Made by a program: the position numbers and the translations under genes
Shown here: positions 5,305 to 15,591 of the stretch, in pieces
Layout of the letters: each line of letters starts with the position of its first letter
Position numbering within the stretch: the stretch's first letter is position 1
From: Mucilaginibacter sp. Bleaf8
GTDB lineage: Bacteria; Bacteroidota; Bacteroidia; Sphingobacteriales; Sphingobacteriaceae
Length of the DNA: 24,000 nucleotides
Reading direction: 5' to 3'
Assembly: GCF_018390515.1 (NCBI RefSeq)
Contig: NZ_JAHBBK010000002.1
Location: 267,743 to 291,742 of the forward strand
Notes under the pieces: generated by a model
What the model was told of the DNA's origin: nothing
The model's database searches: none
The model's input: the letters and a program-made list of their open reading frames with translations, nothing else

Positions 5305-5736
5305 TTACTTTTTAAGTTGTTCCACAATTGATGCAGTATCCAGCAAGTACCACATTTCGGTGAAAAGGCTGTTTTGTACCCTATACGAGGCAAACTCCGT
5401 AAAGGCGATCGACGAACCGGTGGGTTCTGCGCCAAAAAAAGTTTTTGCGGGAGTTCCTCTGTCTTGCAATCGGGCGGCTATACGTTCGCCATCCACAAAA
5501 AGGTCTTCTATCTGCCATATATAATCTGGCACAATATCGGTTAGCCATTGAAGACCAGCAAGTACATCTGCAGGTTTAGAAGACTGACCGTTTATTTTAA
5601 CCTCATCAGAGACCAACGTAGCCACCAAATCAAAATTACGTTCGTTTAGTGCTGCGATATAACGCTGGTAAAAAGCAGACAAGTCATTACTTGAGGATTG
5701 ATCAGGTGCGGTTGAATTGTTTTCTAAGCTGTTCAT
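5305..5736 (-). CDS. SnoaL-like / NTF2-fold protein (predicted ester cyclase family)
   Basis: 143 aa. The segment FYQRYIAALNERNFDLVATLVSDEVKINGQ and the later WQIEDLFVDGERIAARL resemble SnoaL-like polyketide cyclase folds. Confidence 0.7.
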   Translation of the reverse strand: MNSLENNSTAPDQSSSNDLSAFYQRYIAALNERNFDLVATLVSDEVKINGQSSKPADVLAGLQWLTDIVPDYIWQIEDLFVDGERIAARLQDRGTPAKTFFGAEPTGSSIAFTEFASYRVQNSLFTEMWYLLDTASIVEQLKK

Positions 5737-5847: not shown

Positions 5848-6177
5848 ATGAAAGACCAAAATTTTTGCAATTCTCAGTGTCCGCTTACAAGAGCTATTGG
5901 CTCCATCGGGAATAAATGGAAACCGCTGATTGTTCACGTAATCAGGCGGAGAACGATCAGGTTTGGTCAGATCAGCGCGCACATTCCTCTAATTACCCGA
6001 AAAGTTTTAACCGAACAGTTAAAGGAGTTGGAGGAGGATGGCATCGTCAACCGGACGGCTTACAAAGAATTACCGCCCAGGGTTGAATACGCATTGACCA
6101 CAAAGGGTATGGCACTGCTCCCCATTGTGGATCAAATTCAAGACTGGTATGTTCAATTTGAAATGCAGCAGAAGTAG
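5848..6177 (+). CDS. HxlR-family transcriptional regulator
   Basis: 109 aa: CPLTRAIGSIGNKWKPLIVHVI...RFGQI...ITRKVLTEQLKELEEDGIVNR...PPRVEYALT. Confidence 0.9.
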   Translation: MKDQNFCNSQCPLTRAIGSIGNKWKPLIVHVIRRRTIRFGQISAHIPLITRKVLTEQLKELEEDGIVNRTAYKELPPRVEYALTTKGMALLPIVDQIQDWYVQFEMQQK

Positions 6178-6509: not shown

Positions 6510-6878
6510 TCAGGCCTTTTTTAGGTGCGCTATCATTTTATTACGGTGCTGCATCCCCCAATCCGAAATCGCGTCTATGACGGGCTGGAGCGAATAGCCA
6601 TACGGCGTAAGCTTGTATTCTACAGTGATGGGTTTGGTCTGCAATACTGTTCTGTTAACCAAGCCATTCGTTTCCAGATCCTGTAATTCTTTGGACAGCA
6701 TTTTGGCGGCAATACCATCGATGTAACCCTTTAACTCCATAAACCTTTTTGGCCCGAAACTGAGTGAACCGATGATCCTAATTTTCCATTTTCCGCTTAG
6801 CAATTCCATCGTGTCACGGATTGCGAGGTGATGATGCGCGCATGCATCTTGGGAGCGATCTTCTTTATCTTTTTGCAT
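6510..6878 (-). CDS. HxlR-family transcriptional regulator
   Basis: 122 aa: MELLSGKWKIRIIGSLSFGPKRFMELKGYIDGIAAKMLSKELQDLETNGLVNR...PITVEYKLT. Confidence 0.9.
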   Translation of the reverse strand: MQKDKEDRSQDACAHHHLAIRDTMELLSGKWKIRIIGSLSFGPKRFMELKGYIDGIAAKMLSKELQDLETNGLVNRTVLQTKPITVEYKLTPYGYSLQPVIDAISDWGMQHRNKMIAHLKKA

Positions 6879-7957: not shown

Positions 7958-8314
7958 GTCCTAATGGACTTTCGCGGCTGGGCCGGGGTTCTACTCCACC
8001 ACAAATACTATGCAAAGTGCTAGGAGAAAAGCAGGTGACGGGGTGTTTACAAGGCTACAGAAGAGGTGGTTGAACTTTGCTGAATGCACTAAATTACTGG
8101 TTAATTTCGCCTCTAATATGCTTTAAAGTAAATTTAGGAGTAAGAATTGTTTATGATGCCGCTGTTGTTTTTGAATAAATAACAGCTGTTAGTTGATTCG
8201 AGTGAGCCTTCTGGAGCTTAGAATTTATCAGTACATGGGCATAATTAACTGAAAGGGCTTTCGATAAAAAACTCGAATTATATGTTGCTCGTGTAAACAT
8301 CTGCATTAAATAAA

Positions 8315-8647
8315 TCACAATATGGCAATACCAATAGTGGTATTTACAATACTCCGGATAACTTTAATCACTGCATTGAGCGCAGCTTCAACAGCAAGTA
8401 AACCCAAGCCTTCCTCGCTCAGTAGTAAAGTTTTGAAGGCTGATTTCTGCATGTCCGTCATCAATTGCGCTTTTTCCACCGAAATGGTTCCGTGAGCCGC
8501 CATTTCACTAATGTTGGTTATGTTTTGTGATAGCGTGGTTAGTGAACTAACAGCAAGCTCGCTAACCATGTCCCATTCATGTCCTAAGCTATCTTTTGCA
8601 GCCGGAATCATTTTTTCGAGAAGTGCCTGAGCGTCTAACAATGCCAT
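8315..8647 (-). CDS. Hypothetical small helical protein; last gene of the Reb cluster
   Basis: 110-aa ATG ORF, 12 nt downstream of the preceding co-directional gene. It has a hydrophobic C-terminal end (VNTTIGIAIL). I recognise no family. Confidence 0.55.
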   Translation of the reverse strand: MALLDAQALLEKMIPAAKDSLGHEWDMVSELAVSSLTTLSQNITNISEMAAHGTISVEKAQLMTDMQKSAFKTLLLSEEGLGLLAVEAALNAVIKVIRSIVNTTIGIAIL

Positions 8648-8659
8648 TACGTTGGGTAA

Positions 8660-9139
8660 TTATCTTATTTTGCGCTTTAAACCATTTTGCAATACAATCA
8701 TGCTGCGGAACTGCACACTGAATGCATTTTCAATAGTATTTATAACGCTGGTATCTGCTTTGGTATTGAGGCCAATTTGGTGTATCCGTTCCAAATCTTC
8801 TACACTGTTTTGCAGTGCGGTTAATTGTTGCACAATTAACGAATATTTAGGTAGAGTGCTGGAACGTATACTCAAATTTTCTATTCTGCCTTCTATTAAA
8901 TTATAAGTGGCTTTGAAATTTAGGTAAGCATTATCCTGTCCCTGGTTATTGATGAGATTTTTTTTGATAGTAACCAGTACCACAAATATTTCGCCCTGAA
9001 CTTCCTGAATACCATAATCTGTTACCTCGTCATAGGGGCCGATCAGCGTAACACTGCAACTAAGGGCAAGAGAGACAACTGCAGAAAAAATCAACGTCAA
9101 TAATTTTGTATGCTTAAACACAAGCTGGTTTGTTCTCAT
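8660..9139 (-). CDS. Putative lipoprotein
   Basis: 159 aa. It has a signal peptide with the lipobox-like LALSC|S (KLLTLIFSAVVSLALSCS). I recognise no family for the mature part. Confidence 0.7.
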   Translation of the reverse strand: MRTNQLVFKHTKLLTLIFSAVVSLALSCSVTLIGPYDEVTDYGIQEVQGEIFVVLVTIKKNLINNQGQDNAYLNFKATYNLIEGRIENLSIRSSTLPKYSLIVQQLTALQNSVEDLERIHQIGLNTKADTSVINTIENAFSVQFRSMIVLQNGLKRKIR

Positions 9140-9156
9140 GTCTCCACCTTAATTGG

Positions 9157-10008
9157 TTACAGCAACGCAAAAGTTTTTAGCGCTGTTGAGTTCCCATTAA
9201 AAATATCCAGGTCTACTTTATTAGCAGTACCCGTAGTAATGCTTCCGCCCGAATATTGCCATATGGTAAAATTGTTCCAGCGTGCAAAAAGCCCTGGCAA
9301 AGCAGATTGGTAAGCAGATACCCATAAAGGATAGACCGAAAAATCTGTAACGCCGTTGAAATACTCGAACCAAAACTCCTTCGATGTATAAATCATTGGT
9401 GTACGTCCGGTTTGTTTAGCGAGTTGCGTAAGGCAATCCTGTATCAATTCAACACAGGCAGTTTTATTGTTTAATATATATTGATTGAGCGACTGAGATT
9501 CGGACGTGTTGCTGCCAACCTGCCACTCGATATCAAGTACCGGCGGGAGGTTACCGGCAGCTGAAAAATCTATACCACATGATTCGAAATTAGCCATCTG
9601 CGCGCTTGCCGCATCCTGAAACGTTAAAAAATGGTATGCACCAAAAATCAGTCCTTGTTGCTTTATGGCAGCCATATTGCCTTTCAGCGTCGGATCTTTG
9701 AAACCGGCACCCTGACTGGCTTTGCAATGAACAAACTGTATATGCGGCGAAAGCTTTTCCCACTCAATGTCACTGTTAAAATGACTTATATCCATGCCTT
9801 GTGGTGCAAGGTGGTCAAGTATAGCCCATGTCTTAGGTCCTGCAATACCATCAGGTGTTAAGCCCTTGTCTGACTGGAATCGTTTTACAGCGGCCTCCGT
9901 ACCTGGCCCGAAATTACCATCAATAGTAAGCGGGTAATTTAAAAATGAAAGTGCGCGCTGAAGCAGTTGTACCTCGCTGCCGGTTGAGTTAAGGTTAAGT
10001 GTTTGCAT
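9157..10008 (-). CDS. Peptidoglycan-binding domain plus GH25 muramidase (lysozyme), no signal peptide
   Basis: N-terminal PG_binding_1 repeat (LQRALSFLNYPLTIDGNFGPGTEAAVKRFQSDKGLTPDGIAGPKTWAIL). GH25 motifs follow: GMDISHFNSDIEW, FVHCKASQG, GAYHF, LDIEW. The track start at 10050 is a TTG; the first ATG is at 10008 (MQTLNLNSTG). Neither start gives a signal peptide. Confidence 0.85.
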   Translation of the reverse strand: MQTLNLNSTGSEVQLLQRALSFLNYPLTIDGNFGPGTEAAVKRFQSDKGLTPDGIAGPKTWAILDHLAPQGMDISHFNSDIEWEKLSPHIQFVHCKASQGAGFKDPTLKGNMAAIKQQGLIFGAYHFLTFQDAASAQMANFESCGIDFSAAGNLPPVLDIEWQVGSNTSESQSLNQYILNNKTACVELIQDCLTQLAKQTGRTPMIYTSKEFWFEYFNGVTDFSVYPLWVSAYQSALPGLFARWNNFTIWQYSGGSITTGTANKVDLDIFNGNSTALKTFALL

Positions 10009-10053
10009 GATACGTTGTGCATTATGTTTTTTAATGATACGATAGTTCAAGAA

Positions 10054-11001
10054 CTAGCCGTAAAAATCAGATGAACCGCCGAAGTTTGCTTTTGATGAAT
10101 AATCAGTTTGTGCTTTTAAATTATCAGGAACGGGAACGTTTGTAGACGTCTCCTGAGTTTTAGCTACAGAATTGATTTTCATTTGCTTATAATCTTTTAT
10201 CGGTGAATTACCGCCGGCTTGCAAGTCAGCACCTGTAGACGTATTATCAGTTGGTGAGGCTTTTGCATCTGGTACAGGCTTAATCGTACTGTTGACTTCC
10301 GGTATGCTATTATTACCATCTGCCGGTTGATGACTTTTATAATTTGTTACTGTGTTAACAACAGGCTGTTGGTTTTTTTCATCGTTTTCCTGAGATCGCA
10401 TGGTTACAAATGTAGCGCTACTGATACCCATTAAGGTAAGTAACGTGTCGCTTAACTCAGGTAAAATACAGCCTTTAGTAATCTGTGCTACTTTATAAAG
10501 ATAAACAGCCATGCCAACAATAGTCCAGATTACGTGCTGAAAACGATGAATACTAATGCCACTATCATCTGATAGAATATCGTAAAAAAAGCCACCAGAC
10601 GGCGAATTCTGATGCCTGGGTCTATCATCGCCTATTTCGCGTTTATCTATGATCTTTGTGATAGCAGCCGTGCCTGAGAATATCCCAAGAACAACAAGTG
10701 CCGTTTGGTTTATCTTCGCTTCGGAGCAATCCCCTTCAAACAGGGAAAGGTATAGGTACGAGCAGGAAATAACCACCGTCCACAACCCCAATTGTACTTT
10801 GGATAAACTGTAAGGAGACGTTATGTTTGTTTTAATTTTAATTAAACTAATATTGGCGGCATTGATAATTTTTGGATCGCCGCTAACATCATCGCGAAGT
10901 AAAAGCGTCCATTTGCCCAGTAGGAAAAACGACAAGAGAATGGCGACTATACCTGCCATTGCCAGTAATGATTCTGGATTGGCAAAACCTATGAACAGCA
11001 T
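10054..11001 (-). CDS. Multi-pass membrane protein with a disordered polar C-terminal tail; function unknown
   Basis: There are about 4-5 hydrophobic helices (AMAGIVAILLSFFLLG, LGLWTVVISCSYLYLSLF, ALVVLGIFSGTAAI, VIWTIVGMAVYLY, LLTLMGISSATFV). A tail of about 110 aa rich in N/S/T/P/Q follows. The track start at 11007 is a TTG; the ATG is at 11001. The stop lies 3 nt from the lysozyme ORF. Confidence 0.75.
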   Translation of the reverse strand: MLFIGFANPESLLAMAGIVAILLSFFLLGKWTLLLRDDVSGDPKIINAANISLIKIKTNITSPYSLSKVQLGLWTVVISCSYLYLSLFEGDCSEAKINQTALVVLGIFSGTAAITKIIDKREIGDDRPRHQNSPSGGFFYDILSDDSGISIHRFQHVIWTIVGMAVYLYKVAQITKGCILPELSDTLLTLMGISSATFVTMRSQENDEKNQQPVVNTVTNYKSHQPADGNNSIPEVNSTIKPVPDAKASPTDNTSTGADLQAGGNSPIKDYKQMKINSVAKTQETSTNVPVPDNLKAQTDYSSKANFGGSSDFYG

Positions 11002-11098
11002 TTTCAAGAAACATTAAATTTGCTAAACTCCTTGTTATTATTGATAATAGCAGGTTTACGTTGAAAAGATTTTCAGTTAAACTGCTGGATGAAATACG

Positions 11099-11806
11099 TT
11101 ACTGCCCGTTATTTACGAAGTAACTAAGCAGATCAACATGCGCTTCATTAAGATCACTTAATAGCGTAGTAATATTTCCGAAGTCCGCATAACGCTGATT
11201 GAACCTGAACTGCAAAGTTGGCTTCACGTCGGAAGGTTGCGGAAATGTTTCGATACAAACATAGTTACCGTTTTGAAGGGGCACTTCTATCCACCAATGC
11301 GTTTCATTAGGGCCGTATGGTATTCCGTCTTCACCGGCATCGTCATAATGCATAACCAGCTTATAGTTAGGTGGCTGGTTTGGTTGTATATACCCTAGTC
11401 CAGTGCAAATGTTATTACATACCCAAGTCATGGCTTGTTCCCGGAACTGCCTCCAGTTAACCCAGTCATCCTGGCTATGTAGGGCATAAGGTTGAAACTG
11501 ATTTACGTATTGATGTGCCTGCATTAAGGTTTGTAAAATTTCCTCTTGCGACCAATAAGAAGCCGGATCTGGATTGATACCCAGCAATATGGTGTCAAAA
11601 GCGTTTGCGGGCCTGTGAATGATAGTAGATGTGTTTTGCTGGTTATAATTGATATTATCCAGTAAACCAAAAAGCGCCCATTTCCAACAGGAAACATTGT
11701 CAGGCATATACCCATCAGGTAAAGTAGCTACCTGTATGGTAGCCCCAGGGCTTGCCTGGACATAGTTATTTAAGACATTTATAATAGCTTGGGTTAGCTG
11801 TGGCAT
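11099..11806 (-). CDS. Hypothetical protein (235 aa), candidate Cys/His enzyme
   Basis: ATG ORF co-directional with the cluster. I recognise no family. Cys40-Trp41 (NVSCWKWALFG), His170 (NETHWWIEV) and Asn179/181 are spaced loosely like a papain-type C/H/N triad. That reading is speculative. Confidence 0.65.
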   Translation of the reverse strand: MPQLTQAIINVLNNYVQASPGATIQVATLPDGYMPDNVSCWKWALFGLLDNINYNQQNTSTIIHRPANAFDTILLGINPDPASYWSQEEILQTLMQAHQYVNQFQPYALHSQDDWVNWRQFREQAMTWVCNNICTGLGYIQPNQPPNYKLVMHYDDAGEDGIPYGPNETHWWIEVPLQNGNYVCIETFPQPSDVKPTLQFRFNQRYADFGNITTLLSDLNEAHVDLLSYFVNNGQ

Positions 11807-11934
11807 AAGGTTAATTTTTAAGGCATTTGTATGTTTTGCTGCATCGGCCTCAGCACTTGTGTTTATGTTTATTATTACTACAACCGTCGTTAAATTAAAA
11901 CATGTTGTGAATAGGCATGCAGTTCAAAAGTTGA

Positions 11935-12606
11935 TCAGTTAAACGGGTTGATTGGCCCTTGCGGAGACCCGAACATGGGCGTAACATACTGAAAATTGGC
12001 GGGCCAGGGGTTTTGATTGCCAAAAATATTTATTGGTAATAACGGAGGCAAGGTGCTCTGTTTGAATCCGTTAGTACTCGTGCTTTCGTTACCATATGGA
12101 AAAGGATAAACCAAACAGGTAGCACCCGATTTTTGCCATAGAATCTGAAACCCGTCCCTGGTAGCCTCTTGAACATATTCTTGAGAAACACATATGCCAA
12201 CGGCAATTCTACGGCCCATAACACCGCATCCTTTTAGTTTTTCAACGTCATTGCGTAAGCCTGGATTAAATTTCCACCGGTTTCCTGTCGATTCGCACTT
12301 CAACTCTACCAGGAGTATCTCCGGCGTGCCGCTGTCAAAAATCAGATCTGCTTTTTGATTCAACTTTGCAAAACCCGGACTTAGCATTGTTTTATTATTA
12401 TTCTGTAATAAATTGGCCGTTACAGTACCAGATACCGCCTCACGTGAAAAGCCTCTCGGCTGGAACGCCATTTTCTTTATAAACATAGATAGATCCGTTT
12501 GGGCCCAAGATTCCCAACCACCTCTAAGGTCAGAAAGTAAGGTAAAATCGCCGCCTTTAGCGTCACACCATCTGGTGACAATATCATAGAAGTTGTAATA
12601 ATTCAT
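11935..12606 (-). CDS. Hypothetical protein (223 aa) with a PD-(D/E)xK nuclease-like motif and a Pro/Gly/Asn-rich tail
   Basis: ATG ORF. The segment ADLIFDSGTPEILLVELKCES has an Asp followed 14 residues later by E-x-K on a hydrophobic strand. A candidate helix-1 Glu lies upstream in WESWAQTDL. Confidence 0.65.
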   Translation of the reverse strand: MNYYNFYDIVTRWCDAKGGDFTLLSDLRGGWESWAQTDLSMFIKKMAFQPRGFSREAVSGTVTANLLQNNNKTMLSPGFAKLNQKADLIFDSGTPEILLVELKCESTGNRWKFNPGLRNDVEKLKGCGVMGRRIAVGICVSQEYVQEATRDGFQILWQKSGATCLVYPFPYGNESTSTNGFKQSTLPPLLPINIFGNQNPWPANFQYVTPMFGSPQGPINPFN

Positions 12607-12614
12607 AGCCGTTT

Positions 12615-12842
12615 TTATTTAGATTGGTTTCCAAATTGCGACTGGCTAACCAGTCCGCTCGGTATTGGTGCGGTTGTTTTGATGAGCACTGACGGCGACA
12701 GGGTAATGTGATCAAATTTTTTTGCTTGTTCATCGTACCAAACACATACAACAAGGCCATTAGCTGGCCTGGATACAGACATTGCCGGCCCGCCAGAAAC
12801 CAGCTTTACCACGTCTCCTGGATTAAAAATAACCTGTGCCAT
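12615..12842 (-). CDS. Small DUF2158 (YodC-like) family protein
   Basis: 75 aa. The segment PGDVVKLVSGGPAMSV...CVWYD matches the GDxVxLKSGGPxMTV...C.W pattern of YodC/DUF2158 small proteins. This match is from memory. Confidence 0.6.
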   Translation of the reverse strand: MAQVIFNPGDVVKLVSGGPAMSVSRPANGLVVCVWYDEQAKKFDHITLSPSVLIKTTAPIPSGLVSQSQFGNQSK

Positions 12843-12872
12843 TTCGTTGTTTCATTTTGGGTGAGTAATTAG

Positions 12873-13286
12873 TTATGCCTGCTGCGTATTTATGCGGCTG
12901 ATGTCATTCATGGCATTATCAGTGTTTTGCACCGTTTGCTGGGCCGTTTGCATTGCGGCCTCAATGGTGGATGCCATGGTTTGCTGTACATTTGCCAACG
13001 ATGGTGTTGTTGGAAAAGTAGGCGTACCTGTAGCAGGTGCAGCAGTTGGTTGCGCAGGCTGTGTCTGTTCACTCATAATTTGTAAACTATCGGCCGTTAA
13101 TGATTTAAAGGCATTATCCACCTGCGCCTGCATGGTTTGCAGCGCCTGTTGTTGAATGGTCAGAATCTGCTGTTTCAAATCGCTTATCTGCTGCTGCATA
13201 TTTTGCCGGGCCTGCTGGGCCGGGGTTAGTTGTTGGGGCACGGAATTCCCTGCATCCATGCCGGGCGTATCTACTTGCTGTGTCAT
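12873..13286 (-). CDS. Gln/Thr/Ala-rich coiled-coil-like protein; function unknown
   Basis: 137-aa ATG ORF with Q-rich heptad-like segments (QQARQNMQQQISDLKQQILTIQQQALQTMQAQV) and a central Pro/Thr/Ala linker. It lies immediately downstream of the rebB array. Confidence 0.6.
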   Translation of the reverse strand: MTQQVDTPGMDAGNSVPQQLTPAQQARQNMQQQISDLKQQILTIQQQALQTMQAQVDNAFKSLTADSLQIMSEQTQPAQPTAAPATGTPTFPTTPSLANVQQTMASTIEAAMQTAQQTVQNTDNAMNDISRINTQQA

Positions 13287-13315
13287 GAAATGTAATTATT
13301 AAAATTTCCTGAATA

Positions 13316-13342
13316 GAGCAATACCGCTTTGCGGTATTGCTC
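13316..13342 (-). terminator. Strong intra-cluster hairpin (terminator or attenuator) after the rebB array
   Basis: Perfect 12-bp stem GAGCAATACCGC-TTT-GCGGTATTGCTC in the 95-nt gap between the last rebB-like gene (stop at 13382) and the next gene (start at 13286). An A/T-rich tract follows on the minus strand. Confidence 0.6.
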
Positions 13343-13381
13343 ATTAACGGCATTAAAGACGCATATCTGCTTGTTGAAATC

Positions 13382-13651
13382 TTATGAACCGAAGATTTGT
13401 TTAGTGCCAACCGCATCAGATGCGGTATCGATAGAATACAGCATAGTTACGCCCATAGTGGTGGCAGCCTGTGCGGTTATATTGCTTTGCTGCTGGCTGG
13501 TGGTGGCATTGTGTGCCGCATTGGCCAGCGCCTGGGCCGTGGCCTGGAATAAATTGCCCATTGCAATAGCAGGTGCATCACCCAGTACCTTGGTGTTTGC
13601 CTGGGTTACCGAATCGGTAATCTGATCGTTTACTGAAGTTGGAAAAGCCAT
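13382..13651 (-). CDS. rebB: RebB-family R-body ('killing trait') protein, copy 1
   Basis: 89 aa: MAFPTSVNDQITDSVTQANTKVLGDAPAIAMGNLFQATAQALANAAHNATTSQQQSNITAQAATTMGVTMLYSIDT. This matches the RebB family core as I recall it (VNSQITD[AS]VTQ.N.KV....PA.A...LYQ......A..NAV..QQQ.N....A.T.QGV...YS.DT). Confidence 0.8.
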   Translation of the reverse strand: MAFPTSVNDQITDSVTQANTKVLGDAPAIAMGNLFQATAQALANAAHNATTSQQQSNITAQAATTMGVTMLYSIDTASDAVGTKQIFGS

Positions 13652-13687
13652 GATAAGATTTTATTTAATGTTTAAATGATTGTATTA

Positions 13688-13975
13688 TTATTGCCCTAGT
13701 ACTTTACCCGGTGTGTAAATCTGCTTGGTGCCTACAGCATCAGAAGCTGTATCAATGGAGTACAGTGTGGTTACACCCATCGTAGTTGCTGCTTGTGCGG
13801 TTATATTGCTTTGTTGCTGGCTGGTGGTGGCATTATGTGCTGCATTGGCTAAAGCCTGGGCTGTTGCCTGAAAAAGGTTGCCCATGGCTATTGCAGGCGC
13901 ATCGCCTAGTACCTTGGTGTTTGCCTGTGTCACCGAATCGGTGATCTGGCTGTTTACTGCGGTTGGAAAAGCCAT
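13688..13975 (-). CDS. rebB: RebB-family R-body protein, copy 2
   Basis: 95 aa. It is almost identical in protein sequence to copy 1 over the first 85 or so residues and has a different C-terminal tail (YTPGKVLGQ). Confidence 0.8.
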   Translation of the reverse strand: MAFPTAVNSQITDSVTQANTKVLGDAPAIAMGNLFQATAQALANAAHNATTSQQQSNITAQAATTMGVTTLYSIDTASDAVGTKQIYTPGKVLGQ

Positions 13976-14002
13976 AAAATTTTATGTTTTACGTTAATAT
14001 TG

Positions 14003-14269
14003 TTATTGATAGATGTTCGTGGTGCCTACAGCATCAGAAGCTGTATCAATTGAGTATAAGGTGGTTACACCCGTGGTGGTGGCCGCCTGCCCGGTCATGT
14101 TAGTTTGTTGCTGCGAGGCCGTGGCATTATGGGCCGCATTGGATAACGCTTGCGAGGTAGCCATAAAAAAGTTACCCATTGCCATAGCGGGCGAGTCGCC
14201 TAATACTTTGGTGTTTACTTCTGATACCGAATCGGTGATCTGACTGTTTACTGCGGTTGGAAAAGCCAT
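14003..14269 (-). CDS. rebB: RebB-family R-body protein, copy 3 (subtype 2)
   Basis: 88 aa: MAFPTAVNSQITDSVSEVNTKVLGDSPAMAMGNFFMATSQALSNAAHNATASQQQTNMTGQAATTTGVTTLYSIDT. Confidence 0.8.
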   Translation of the reverse strand: MAFPTAVNSQITDSVSEVNTKVLGDSPAMAMGNFFMATSQALSNAAHNATASQQQTNMTGQAATTTGVTTLYSIDTASDAVGTTNIYQ

Positions 14270-14306
14270 GATTTTTACTGTTGTGGTTAATTAATCCGGT
14301 TAGTTA

Positions 14307-14573
14307 TTATGCGAAAATCTTTTTTGTACCCACCGCGTCAGACGACGTGTCTATAGAGTACAACGTGGTTATACCCGAGGTTGTAGCTGCCTGTGCAGTA
14401 ATGTTGGTTTGCTGTTGTGCAGCAGTTGCATTATGAGCGGCATTAGCCAGGGCTTGTGAGGTTGCCATGAAAAGGTTACCCATTGCCATAGCGGGCGAGT
14501 CGCCCAATACTTTGGTGTTTACTTGTGAAACTGAGTCGGTAATTTGATCATTTACTGATGTTGGAAAAGCCAT
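14307..14573 (-). CDS. rebB: RebB-family R-body protein, copy 4 (subtype 2)
   Basis: 88 aa. It shares the DSPAMAMGN.FMATSQAL signature with copy 3. Confidence 0.8.
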   Translation of the reverse strand: MAFPTSVNDQITDSVSQVNTKVLGDSPAMAMGNLFMATSQALANAAHNATAAQQQTNITAQAATTSGITTLYSIDTSSDAVGTKKIFA

Positions 14574-14611
14574 AATTGTTTTCTTTTAAGGTTATAAAAT
14601 GGTGTTAATTG

Positions 14612-14878
14612 TTAAGCGTAAATTTGTTTGGTGCCTACGGCATCAGACGATGTATCTATAGAATACAATGTAGTTACGCCCATCGTAGTGGCTGCTTGTG
14701 CCGTAATGTTGCTTTGTTGCTGACTGGTGGTAGCATTGTGGGCTGCGTTGGCTAAAGCCTGTGCCGTTGCCTGGAGCAAATTGCCCATTGCTGTTGCCGG
14801 TGCCAGGCCCAGTACCTGTGTGTTTGCTTGTGTTACCGAATCGGTGATTTGACTGTTTACTGCGGTTGGAAAAGCCAT
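14612..14878 (-). CDS. rebB: RebB-family R-body protein, copy 5 (subtype 1 variant)
   Basis: 88 aa. It is close to copies 1 and 2 but has LGLAPATAMGNLLQ. Confidence 0.8.
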   Translation of the reverse strand: MAFPTAVNSQITDSVTQANTQVLGLAPATAMGNLLQATAQALANAAHNATTSQQQSNITAQAATTMGVTTLYSIDTSSDAVGTKQIYA

Positions 14879-14904
14879 AGTTGTTTAATTTTAAGTTTAT
14901 GTAT

Positions 14905-15129
14905 TTAGATTTTTATCGAATAAATAAGTGCCACACCCTGGGCAGTTACTGCTTGCCCTAAGATATTGGCCTGCTGCTGGGCAACGGTGGCATTGTGTGC
15001 GGCGTTGGCCAGCGCCTGGGCCGTGGCCTGGTAAAAGTTGCCTATAGATATGGCAGGCGCGTTGCCAATTACCTCCAAACCTGCTTCTGTAATTGAATCG
15101 GTAATTTGGCTATTTACAGTTGATGCCAT
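14905..15129 (-). CDS. rebB: RebB-family R-body protein, copy 6 (short form, closest to the classical RebB core)
   Basis: 74 aa: MASTVNSQITDSITEAGLEVIGNAPAISIGNFYQATAQALANAAHNATVAQQQANILGQAVTAQGVALIYSIKI. It lacks the MAFPT N-terminus and the SIDTxSDAVGT C-terminus of the other five. Confidence 0.8.
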   Translation of the reverse strand: MASTVNSQITDSITEAGLEVIGNAPAISIGNFYQATAQALANAAHNATVAQQQANILGQAVTAQGVALIYSIKI

Positions 15130-15159
15130 TGTGCGTACTACTTATGTTTCCAAAATGAA

Positions 15160-15579
15160 TTAGTTGTTAGCCGGTACACCGCTGCTTGTGCTGCCTGCCT
15201 GATCAGACGTATTGCCGGGTGTTGTACTGGTAACTACGGTTGCCGTGGGCGTTGTTACTGTCTGAACAGTAGTTGAGGGAGTAGTATTACTTGTACCTGA
15301 CGTTGTTGTGCTGCCCGAAAGATCAGCAGGAGCAGGTGGCGCGGGCTTTGGTGGTGGCGACTGTATGCCCATTACCGAAAGTATGCGGGCACATGTTGAG
15401 GTGGTTGTGGCCGAGTTTAACATTTGTGCATTATGCTGTGCCGTTACTGCATTATGCATTGACATGCCTATAGTTTCGGCCATCACATTGTTCAACATGG
15501 CAACAGATTGTGAATTTGCAGTTCCGCGCAAAAGTTGCTGAACGTCGGTTATTGATGATAATATAAAATCGTTTGACAT
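15160..15579 (-). CDS. Divergent Reb-like domain fused to a Ser/Thr/Pro-rich C-terminal tail
   Basis: 139 aa. Residues ~8-70 (SSITDVQQLLRGTANSQSVAMLNNVMAETIGMSMHNAVTAQHNAQMLNSATTTSTCARILSV) align colinearly with the RebB core (ITD ... A.M.N ... HNA.T.Q....). A tail of about 70 aa follows (PPPKPAPPAPADLSGSTTTSGTSNTTPSTTVQTVTTPTATVVTSTTPGNTSDQAGSTSSG). Confidence 0.65.
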   Translation of the reverse strand: MSNDFILSSITDVQQLLRGTANSQSVAMLNNVMAETIGMSMHNAVTAQHNAQMLNSATTTSTCARILSVMGIQSPPPKPAPPAPADLSGSTTTSGTSNTTPSTTVQTVTTPTATVVTSTTPGNTSDQAGSTSSGVPANN

Positions 15580-15591
15580 ATGATTATTATG

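Follow-up and report, generated by a model that had tools for sequence, protein, structure and literature searches.

The four-gene module that ends the R-body cluster of Mucilaginibacter sp. Bleaf8 (Bacteroidota), a candidate non-phage lysis device

The stretch of 24,000 nucleotides (nt) analysed here, called the window throughout, comes from Mucilaginibacter sp. Bleaf8 and carries an R-body (reb) cluster, at the 3' end of which stands a module of four co-directional minus-strand genes (8315-11007) that is the subject of this report. So far, the only account of how micrometre-scale R bodies leave the cell has been the assumption that they burst it by extending. Among the closest described systems is the type 10 secretion system (T10SS) of Yersinia entomophaga, in which a chromosomal holin/endolysin/spanin cassette releases the Tc toxin Yen-Tc in a subpopulation of cells (PMC10847048, PMC10101115). 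In the PaLoc of Clostridioides difficile, the holin TcdE and the endolysin remnant TcdL are likewise lysis-type genes inside a cargo locus, implicated in releasing very large cytoplasmic products (PMC6200909, PMC12485765). The reb clusters of Caedibacter, Pseudomonas aeruginosa PA14 and other Proteobacteria combine RebB paralogues in one operon with accessory genes and regulators, and their descriptions mention no muramidase, holin or lysis genes (PMC3583457, PMC8322103); the 2013 survey of reb genes listed a single Bacteroidetes example. Literature searches for R bodies in connection with holins or endolysins, and for Reb in Pedobacter, Mucilaginibacter or Chitinophaga, returned no such paper. 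The phage lambda S-R-Rz/Rz1 cassette places a membrane protein before a cytoplasmic muralytic enzyme and a lipoprotein gene. The Cid/Lrg proteins are chromosomal multi-pass membrane proteins, holin-like and antiholin-like, that regulate murein hydrolases under two-component control and are linked to programmed death.

The module shares several properties with the T10SS of Y. entomophaga, consisting of non-prophage chromosomal genes in which a signal-less endolysin-type enzyme lies beside a membrane protein, adjoining those of a cytoplasmic product whose size rules out ordinary secretion. Dedicated regulators are encoded close by in both cases, and lysis of specialised producer cells is the proposed outcome. 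It differs in its membrane protein, here called C0, which cannot be recognised as a holin; C0 spans the membrane with five predicted helices, has a core of about 205 amino acids (aa) and is confined to Bacteroidota and a few other phyla, with no member found in phages. The module further carries a lipoprotein and a predicted soluble three-helix protein instead of a spanin pair. Compared component by component, the endolysin is present, a holin-like candidate is present by association only and the spanin is absent, with non-prophage lysis-type genes encoded together with a large cytoplasmic cargo in 17 of 17 reb clusters. The gene order is that of the lambda cassette, and C0 resembles lambda S in its predicted hydrophilic cytoplasmic C-terminal tail; however, the components show no sequence or profile similarity beyond the enzyme class, an i-spanin is lacking, the membrane protein differs in size and helix count, and C0 is not phage-borne. 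TcdE, unlike C0, clearly belongs to a phage holin family, and the Gram-positive host of the PaLoc has no outer-membrane step. C0 resembles Cid/Lrg as a chromosomal multi-pass membrane protein with two-component control and a link to murein hydrolases, but no homology between them was found in Pfam or NCBIfam, and Cid/Lrg are not known to be encoded beside endolysin-type genes or cargo clusters. Unlike the proteobacterial reb clusters, the Bacteroidota clusters examined here all end with C0, mostly followed by a muramidase. C0 is a previously undescribed family, and the known kind of logic to which it may be likened is lysis of the type 10 secretion kind.

The four open reading frames (ORFs) reported by the initial annotation are present on the minus strand, with the following order and assignments.

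10054..11007, minus strand: C0-family inner-membrane protein, 317 aa, candidate holin-like partner (transmembrane helices, distribution of lysine and arginine, family alignment, adjacency to hydrolases)
9157..10050, minus strand: muramidase of endolysin type with PG_binding_1 and GH25 domains (Pfam, PHROG), 297 aa from TTG 10050, likely start ATG 10008 (283 aa)
8660..9139, minus strand: lipoprotein, 159-aa precursor with lipobox LALS|C, a divergent member of family C1 (hhalign to C1)
8315..8647, minus strand: soluble three-helix-bundle protein of 110 aa, family C2 (AlphaFold2 (AF2) model, hhalign to C2)

The gaps between these ORFs are 3, 17 and 12 nt. Across the whole co-directional run on the minus strand the gaps range from 3 to 38 nt, with the exception of three of 95, 128 and 91 nt, the 91-nt gap lying immediately 5' of the membrane gene. 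The module genes are tightly packed and run in the same direction behind the reb genes.

The evidence that carries the association of the module with R bodies comes from 17 reb clusters that are readable to their 3' end, all of them from Bacteroidota and falling into two classes. They include the window, a metagenome contig that is its closest relative (L057), five Pedobacter loci (L001-L005), a metagenome-assembled genome of Chitinophagaceae (L008), L058 and seven metagenome contigs found through the 341-aa protein of the cluster. C0 is present at the 3' end in every one of the 17, and a GH25 gene follows it in 15 of them. In L008 the gene after C0 encodes the GH19 catalytic motif FRGRGFIQTTGRMNY, a weak match (local hidden Markov model (HMM) E = 4.6e-8; PHROG endolysin E = 1.3e-4 over the motif only). 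The gene order of the window is repeated in the Pedobacter and metagenome loci, and the arrangement of the module is more than chance and recurs in every related reb cluster examined. C0 is thereby supported as a fixed 3' component of Bacteroidota reb clusters.

A second line of evidence is the C-terminal end of C0. All 16 Reb-linked C0 tails that were read, those of 15 other loci and that of the window, end in FYG, compared with none of 50 C0 proteins outside reb clusters. In the window the motif is encoded at 10054-10062, and the other FYG-bearing C0 genes are among L001-L005, L008, L057, L058 and L065-L073. The remainder of the Reb-linked tail varies from about 50 to 110 residues and is poorly conserved, and the Reb-linked C0 proteins form one clade in a neighbour-joining tree. 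The retention of FYG at the end of an otherwise drifting tail, predicted to be cytoplasmic, suggests a specific intracellular interaction, in the compartment of R-body assembly.

The link between C0 and peptidoglycan hydrolases extends beyond reb clusters. A set of 56 genome loci encoding C0 was collected, with an alignment of 21 closer sequences; their ORFs were called and clustered, their neighbours mapped, and about 1 Mb of flanking sequence scanned for hydrolases. An enzyme of one of three unrelated families, GH25, GH19 or GH108, lies at most two genes from C0 in 20 of the 56 loci and at most three genes away in three more (23/56). Of the 27 hydrolase matches in these flanks, 24 fall within three genes of C0. 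GH25 with PG_binding_1 stands directly 3' of C0 in five Pedobacter reb clusters. GH108 with PG_binding_3 (Pfam E = 2e-24; PHROG endolysin E = 5.5e-40) adjoins C0, before or after it, in eleven loci, and this pair occurs in no fewer than five distinct neighbourhoods and in either gene order. A GH19-type enzyme (PHROG endolysin E = 2.4e-45) precedes C0 or lies at most three genes away in six loci. All of these C0-linked GH25, GH19 and GH108 enzymes are without a hydrophobic N-terminus or signal peptide. One further metagenome contig reads C0-like gene, 315-aa PG_binding_1 protein, lipoprotein and 110-aa gene, and L043 holds the four families together in another order. A Pfam census of 78 C0 neighbours found no hidden peptidoglycan hydrolase family in loci without a recognised hydrolase; not every C0 is thus linked to such an enzyme. 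A gene that recurs beside interchangeable muralytic enzymes lacking a signal shows the pattern by which holin-like partners are classically known in genomes, as predicted here for C0, and this pattern is the main support for the proposal of the initial annotation; C0 is a credible functional partner of the muramidase.

The surroundings of C0 in loci without reb genes have features of their own. A bestrophin-like membrane protein, C4 (PF14023, E = 4e-44), is encoded between C2 and C0 in many reb-free modules (L006-L019, L027, L031, L034, L051). Such modules stand behind genes for a propeller-type (hybrid) histidine kinase of about 1030 aa and a LuxR-type regulator, the C5/C3 pair upstream of C1-C2-C4-C0; the window likewise has a HisKA_3 kinase and a LuxR regulator (20017-21496) beside its reb cluster. 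In the reb-free loci L007 (5285-7462) and L016 (10729-15900), C0 is followed by proteins resembling Clostridium_P47 (PF06597, E = 9.1e-32), with three paralogues in L016, and in L011-L013, L015 and L025 it is followed by proteins of 560-1250 aa without signal peptide or Pfam domain; both groups are possible alternative cargoes. In seven Pedobacter loci, genes for a carbamoyltransferase, an Asp/Arg beta-hydroxylase-like protein and a PhyH-type dioxygenase precede the GH108-C0 pair (L020-L024, L029, L032, L033 region).

The membrane protein of the window is 100% identical to KHS38_10100 of Mucilaginibacter sp. Bleaf8. Its multi-pass nature, as initially proposed, is borne out by hydrophobicity peaks and the AF2 model, which agree on five transmembrane helices (11-42, 68-91, 101-125, 153-175 and 187-213), followed by a tail that is disordered in the model (214-317). 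The 112-aa tail is polar, with 10 lysine or arginine and 13 aspartate or glutamate residues, and ends in FYG. Counts of lysine and arginine would place loops 34-67 and 120-152 together with the tail in the cytoplasm, and two short loops, each with a conserved cysteine (GDC, KGC), are predicted to face the periplasm. The conserved inward loop reads IDKREIGDDRPRHQNSPSGGFFYDILSDDSGISIHRFQ. A search of 5.8 billion proteins gave 97 relatives, mainly from Pedobacter, Mucilaginibacter, Dyadobacter and Chitinophagaceae with distant members in other phyla, spanning 185 to 501 aa; none of the 97 carries a Pfam domain or an informative name. In the family alignment a core of about 205 aa is strongly conserved and the tail is variable and of low complexity; the invariant positions are S67 L68 Q72 W76 ... 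G150 I151 S152 R155 F156 Q157 ... P183 E184 L185 S186 (numbered on the window protein as query). In common with holins, C0 is a predicted inner-membrane protein with at least one transmembrane domain, lies next to an endolysin without export signal and, judging from the lysine and arginine counts, would carry a hydrophilic cytoplasmic C-terminal domain; holins usually have fewer than about 150 aa and one to four transmembrane domains, and C0 with 317 aa and five helices falls outside this range. A search of the C0 model with Foldseek against the PDB gave no fold match, the best hits being uninformative V-ATPase c-ring subunits (E = 0.22), and C0 has no match in PADLOC. The start of the membrane ORF (10999-11007) reads TTG-AAA-ATG, that is (M)-K-M, like the dual-start motif of lambda S, and L001 reads M-Y-L-K-M at this place; the likeness may be a coincidence.

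The second gene encodes the muramidase with PG_binding_1 (E = 2.7e-20, 72.7 bits against a Pfam cut-off of 23) and Glyco_hydro_25 (E = 6.3e-36, 124.8 bits against a cut-off of 27), and the GH25 motifs GMDISHFN and LDIEW are intact. The protein also matches PHROG endolysin families, down to E = 7.6e-36. Pfam and hydropathy agree with the earlier description of these domains on a protein without export signal: neither a signal peptide nor a signal-anchor-release segment was found with either start, the N-terminus being polar and the maximum hydropathy over 19 residues 0.84. The muramidase is consequently expected to be made in the cytoplasm, and its assignment as a cytoplasmic endolysin-type enzyme is supported. 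The reported distance of 3 nt from the membrane gene holds for the ORF opened at TTG; the Pedobacter orthologues begin at the equivalent of Met15 (MQTLSIGS...), and the real start is therefore probably ATG 10008, which gives a gap of 45 nt. An exact look-up of the protein read from TTG gave no recorded sequence. Identity to phage endolysins is about 30%, and the enzyme is therefore not a recent phage gene.

The third gene agrees with the initial description of a lipoprotein with lipobox LALSC. Its signal is a textbook one, combining an n-region with arginine or lysine, a hydrophobic core and LALS|C, and the lipobox cysteine is invariant among homologues. The mature protein has 131 aa with two prolines, no further cysteine and no C-terminal hydrophobic segment. 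Only three close relatives were found, each followed by a 110-aa gene. The product of the fourth gene is the small helical protein that had been proposed, modelled by AF2 as entirely helical with high confidence (predicted local distance difference test (pLDDT) 94.1, predicted template modelling score 0.85). Its helices 6-51, 57-76 and 83-105 form a three-helix bundle, in which the hydrophobic C-terminal end is predicted to be packed inside the soluble fold, not serving as a membrane anchor. No transmembrane domain or signal peptide was detected in this protein, and the fold search returned only generic helical bundles (best E = 0.39). Its family comprises 293 cluster representatives, all of about 110 aa.

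Comparisons of the single lipoprotein and 110-aa sequences with the C1 and C2 profiles gave no clear result and local HMMs returned nothing, so that family profiles were needed. With hhalign, the 110-aa family aligns to C2 with a probability of 96% (E = 2.1e-9, 106 columns), and the lipoprotein family aligns to C1 with a probability of 74% (E = 2.9e-5, 124 columns), the weaker of the two links. In L057 and the Pedobacter loci L002-L004 the two genes after GH25 are a C1 lipoprotein and C2, the same position as the pair of the window. Because of this profile-profile homology and the matching position, the lipoprotein and 110-aa genes are divergent C1 and C2 and belong to the module. The C1-C2 pair precedes C0 in many non-Reb loci, and the pair is also found without a nearby hydrolase and alone.

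Several spanin assignments were considered for this pair and rejected. An o-spanin is small and proline-rich with extra cysteines, whereas the mature lipoprotein has 131 aa, two prolines and no extra cysteine. An i-spanin has an N-terminal transmembrane domain and a periplasmic coiled coil, whereas the 110-aa protein is a soluble three-helix bundle without transmembrane domain, encoded after the lipoprotein. A unimolecular spanin of the T1 gp11 type is contradicted by the missing C-terminal transmembrane domain of the lipoprotein. The lipoprotein has no spanin match in PHROG, and no phage relatives of either protein were found. The proposal of a spanin-like lipoprotein with a partner is contradicted by these features, by the occurrence of the pair without a hydrolase and by the position of the lipoprotein gene ahead of the 110-aa gene. 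The proposed order of holin-like, endolysin and spanin-like genes is thus supported in its first half, through the linkage of C0 to hydrolases across genomes, and fails in its spanin half. As a separate observation, the C1 lipoprotein of L013 (8254-8697) matches a PADLOC model named Csx23 (E = 9.6e-12); a search of the C1 profile against PDB sequences found no solved Csx23, so this label is not confirmed, and the proteins of the window have no PADLOC match.

Taken together, the four genes are the distal module of the Bacteroidota R-body cluster and most likely serve as a dedicated non-phage device for cell lysis or wall weakening, a reading to which we assign roughly an even chance. Support for the whole reading comes entirely from comparative genomics. 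C0 would permeabilise or open the inner membrane in a holin-like manner and give the muramidase regulated access to peptidoglycan, and its cytoplasmic tail with the invariant FYG would couple this membrane step to some product of the reb cluster. The lipoprotein, predicted to face the periplasm, and the 110-aa protein, predicted to be soluble in the cytoplasm, would act as accessory factors of C0 in timing control or in action on the envelope. As a result, R-body-laden cells would lyse or their walls would weaken, freeing R bodies, whose size far exceeds what any secretion system could pass, in a process analogous to the type 10 secretion of Tc toxins. That this release would occur by autolysis of a producer subpopulation is something we purely infer. 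In a broader form, which we regard as a tentative possibility, C0 with C1/C2 would constitute a Bacteroidota-wide, non-phage-derived and two-component-regulated system for programmed lysis or cargo release. It would comprise a new holin-like family with interchangeable GH25, GH19 and GH108 enzymes, of which the FYG clade was recruited by R-body clusters to couple assembly to lysis of the producer, and the cargo of other members may be P47/OrfX-like or further large proteins without signal that are encoded just downstream.

Several observations weigh against the reading of the module as a dedicated lysis device. About 11 close loci have C1-C2-C4-C0 without a nearby hydrolase, and the role of C0 is therefore not strictly dependent on an adjacent hydrolase; the distant C0 loci (L036-L056) have heterogeneous neighbours, and the reb cluster of L058 has C0 and no recognisable hydrolase. 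Since the Reb-linked C0 proteins form one clade, the FYG end counts as a single innovation retained ever since, not as 16 separate gains. Unlike known holins, C0 has a core conserved at 40-60% identity across genera, and the majority of its members start with a lipoprotein-type signal. Searches of C0 against Pfam, PHROG and NCBIfam gave no match and no holin profile, and no phage relatives were found by tblastn against the 50,697 phage records of INPHARED or in IMG/VR. The assignment of C0 to a phage holin family was dropped on this account, and the term phage-style in the initial annotation does not hold in the sense of descent; judged from these searches, C0 is in no described holin family and is not phage-borne. 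The AF2 model of C0 is weak (pLDDT 57). In addition, published work attributes lysis of the cell to the extension of the R body itself (PMC8322103).

This published view leads to the main rival, in which the R body does the work of the holin: its pH-triggered extension would tear the inner membrane, the cytoplasmic muramidase would then finish the wall, and C0 with the lipoprotein/110-aa pair would have another function, for example in envelope signalling or in coping with stress. Two sources report that membranes are ruptured and the producer lysed when R bodies extend (PMC8322103; bioRxiv 10.1101/029587), and both a muramidase without export signal and a C0 outside the holin families fit this explanation. 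It leaves unexplained, however, why C0 adjoins signal-less GH19 and GH108 genes in reb-free genomes and why the FYG end is kept in all Reb-linked C0, and we consider it unlikely. The module could also belong to a general two-component-regulated system of Sphingobacteriia and Chitinophagia for autolysin control or wall remodelling, following a logic like that of Cid/Lrg and linked to the reb cluster without being dedicated to R-body release. The occurrence of C1-C2-(bestrophin-like C4)-C0 behind a hybrid kinase and LuxR regulator in many reb-free genomes, often hydrolase-free, and of the lipoprotein/110-aa pair alone speaks for such a system. The presence of C0 in 17 of 17 reb clusters of two classes with the hydrolase type exchanged, the Reb-specific C0 clade with its FYG end and the tight packing of the module behind the reb genes argue against it, and we judge it improbable.

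Descent from a phage lysis cassette, domesticated with its holin, endolysin and two-component spanin, is suggested by the order of membrane protein, endolysin-type enzyme and lipoprotein and by the match of the enzyme to phage endolysin families. The lack of phage relatives of C0, the lipoprotein and the 110-aa protein, the large and proline-poor lipoprotein encoded ahead of its partner, the already contradicted spanin part with a soluble bundle lacking a transmembrane domain, and an enzyme only about 30% identical to phage enzymes make this origin very unlikely. An abortive-infection or defence-type suicide module, triggered by a signal and unrelated to R-body export, would draw on the Csx23 label of the C1 protein in L013 (which was not confirmed against solved Csx23) and on the fact that membrane effectors together with lytic enzymes are common in defence systems. 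The window proteins lack PADLOC matches, the C1 profile does not match solved Csx23, no CRISPR or other defence genes lie nearby in the window and the association with reb genes is systematic, which leaves a defence role scarcely credible.

If the reading of the module as a dedicated lysis device is true, the muramidase and its membrane partner at the end of Bacteroidota reb clusters would be the first genetically encoded step of R-body release, a question directly testable by deleting the two genes in a culturable Pedobacter. With C0, the few known lysis-based type 10 systems would gain a holin-like component that is not of phage kind and would extend to Bacteroidota, and a way would open into about 50 uncharacterised chromosomal modules in which C0 is paired with endolysin-type enzymes. 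R bodies serve as pH-driven actuators in synthetic biology, and a matched release module could be practically useful.

The genomic setting of the module comprises the following further features.

8161..8186, no strand assigned: palindromic hairpin with a 10-bp stem, 130 nt past the last gene, candidate end of the transcription unit
11008..11098, minus strand: 91-nt intergenic region 5' of the membrane gene, possible internal promoter or regulatory site
11099..16974, minus strand: R-body cluster carrying the module (RebB Pfam matches; order matching Pedobacter and metagenome loci)
17267..18136, minus strand: AraC-family candidate regulator that heads the cluster, its position kept in Pedobacter loci
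20017..20823, plus strand: HisKA_3 histidine kinase (Pfam), divergent from the reb cluster and kept beside Pedobacter reb clusters
20801..21496, plus strand: LuxR-type response regulator (Pfam), divergent from the reb cluster and kept beside Pedobacter reb clusters

After the AraC gene, the reb run is listed as genes for a Reb-like 108-aa protein, a 341-aa protein and a 139-aa protein with RebB domain, followed by six tandem RebB paralogues (13382-15129), a Q-rich 137-aa protein, DUF2158, a 223-aa and a 235-aa protein and then the four-gene module. The RebB (PF11747) matches reach E = 7.1e-29 and 7.6e-31 for two of the six tandem paralogues and E = 1.8e-13 for the 139-aa protein. In the flanks lie ordinary genes of metabolism and regulation (methyltransferase, SDR, HxlR, AraC, SnoaL and hydrolase), and Pfam annotation found no capsid, tail, terminase or integrase genes in the window, in agreement with the earlier claim; on its gene content the locus is not a prophage. 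This ordinary chromosomal context includes three HxlR-family regulators (2305-2652, 5848-6177 and 6510-6878) and two SnoaL-like proteins (5305-5736 and 22513-22971).

A scan for sigma-70 promoters gave 27 matches compared with 26.6 in shuffled sequences and a search for the Bacteroidetes-type promoter TTTG...TAnnTTTG gave counts at chance level, neither of them yielding an operon map; an Rfam search gave no matches. The region 5' of the membrane gene is alignable with its equivalents in Pedobacter psychrotolerans (L001) and in L057, and 11008-11098 may be an internal regulatory site. The two largest intergenic gaps of the distal cluster (11008-11098; 11922-11952) each contain a copy of a 31-nt direct repeat (D1; 77% identity), one 5' of the gene at 11099-11806 and one 5' of the membrane gene; the repeat itself is not conserved in the relatives. 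The 223-aa protein (11935-12606, minus strand) and its paralogues (clusters C32/C33 in L002-L005; L058, 8849-9971) gave no match in a Pfam search and share W..GGWE.W.Q followed by D-x(10-20)-(V/I)ELK, which looks like a PD-(D/E)xK nuclease-type motif. Finally, the interval 13000-15500, overlapping the six tandem RebB paralogues, shows a GC skew of 0.14-0.19 and an AT skew of about -0.2, a strong strand bias that probably results from the biased amino-acid composition of these paralogues.

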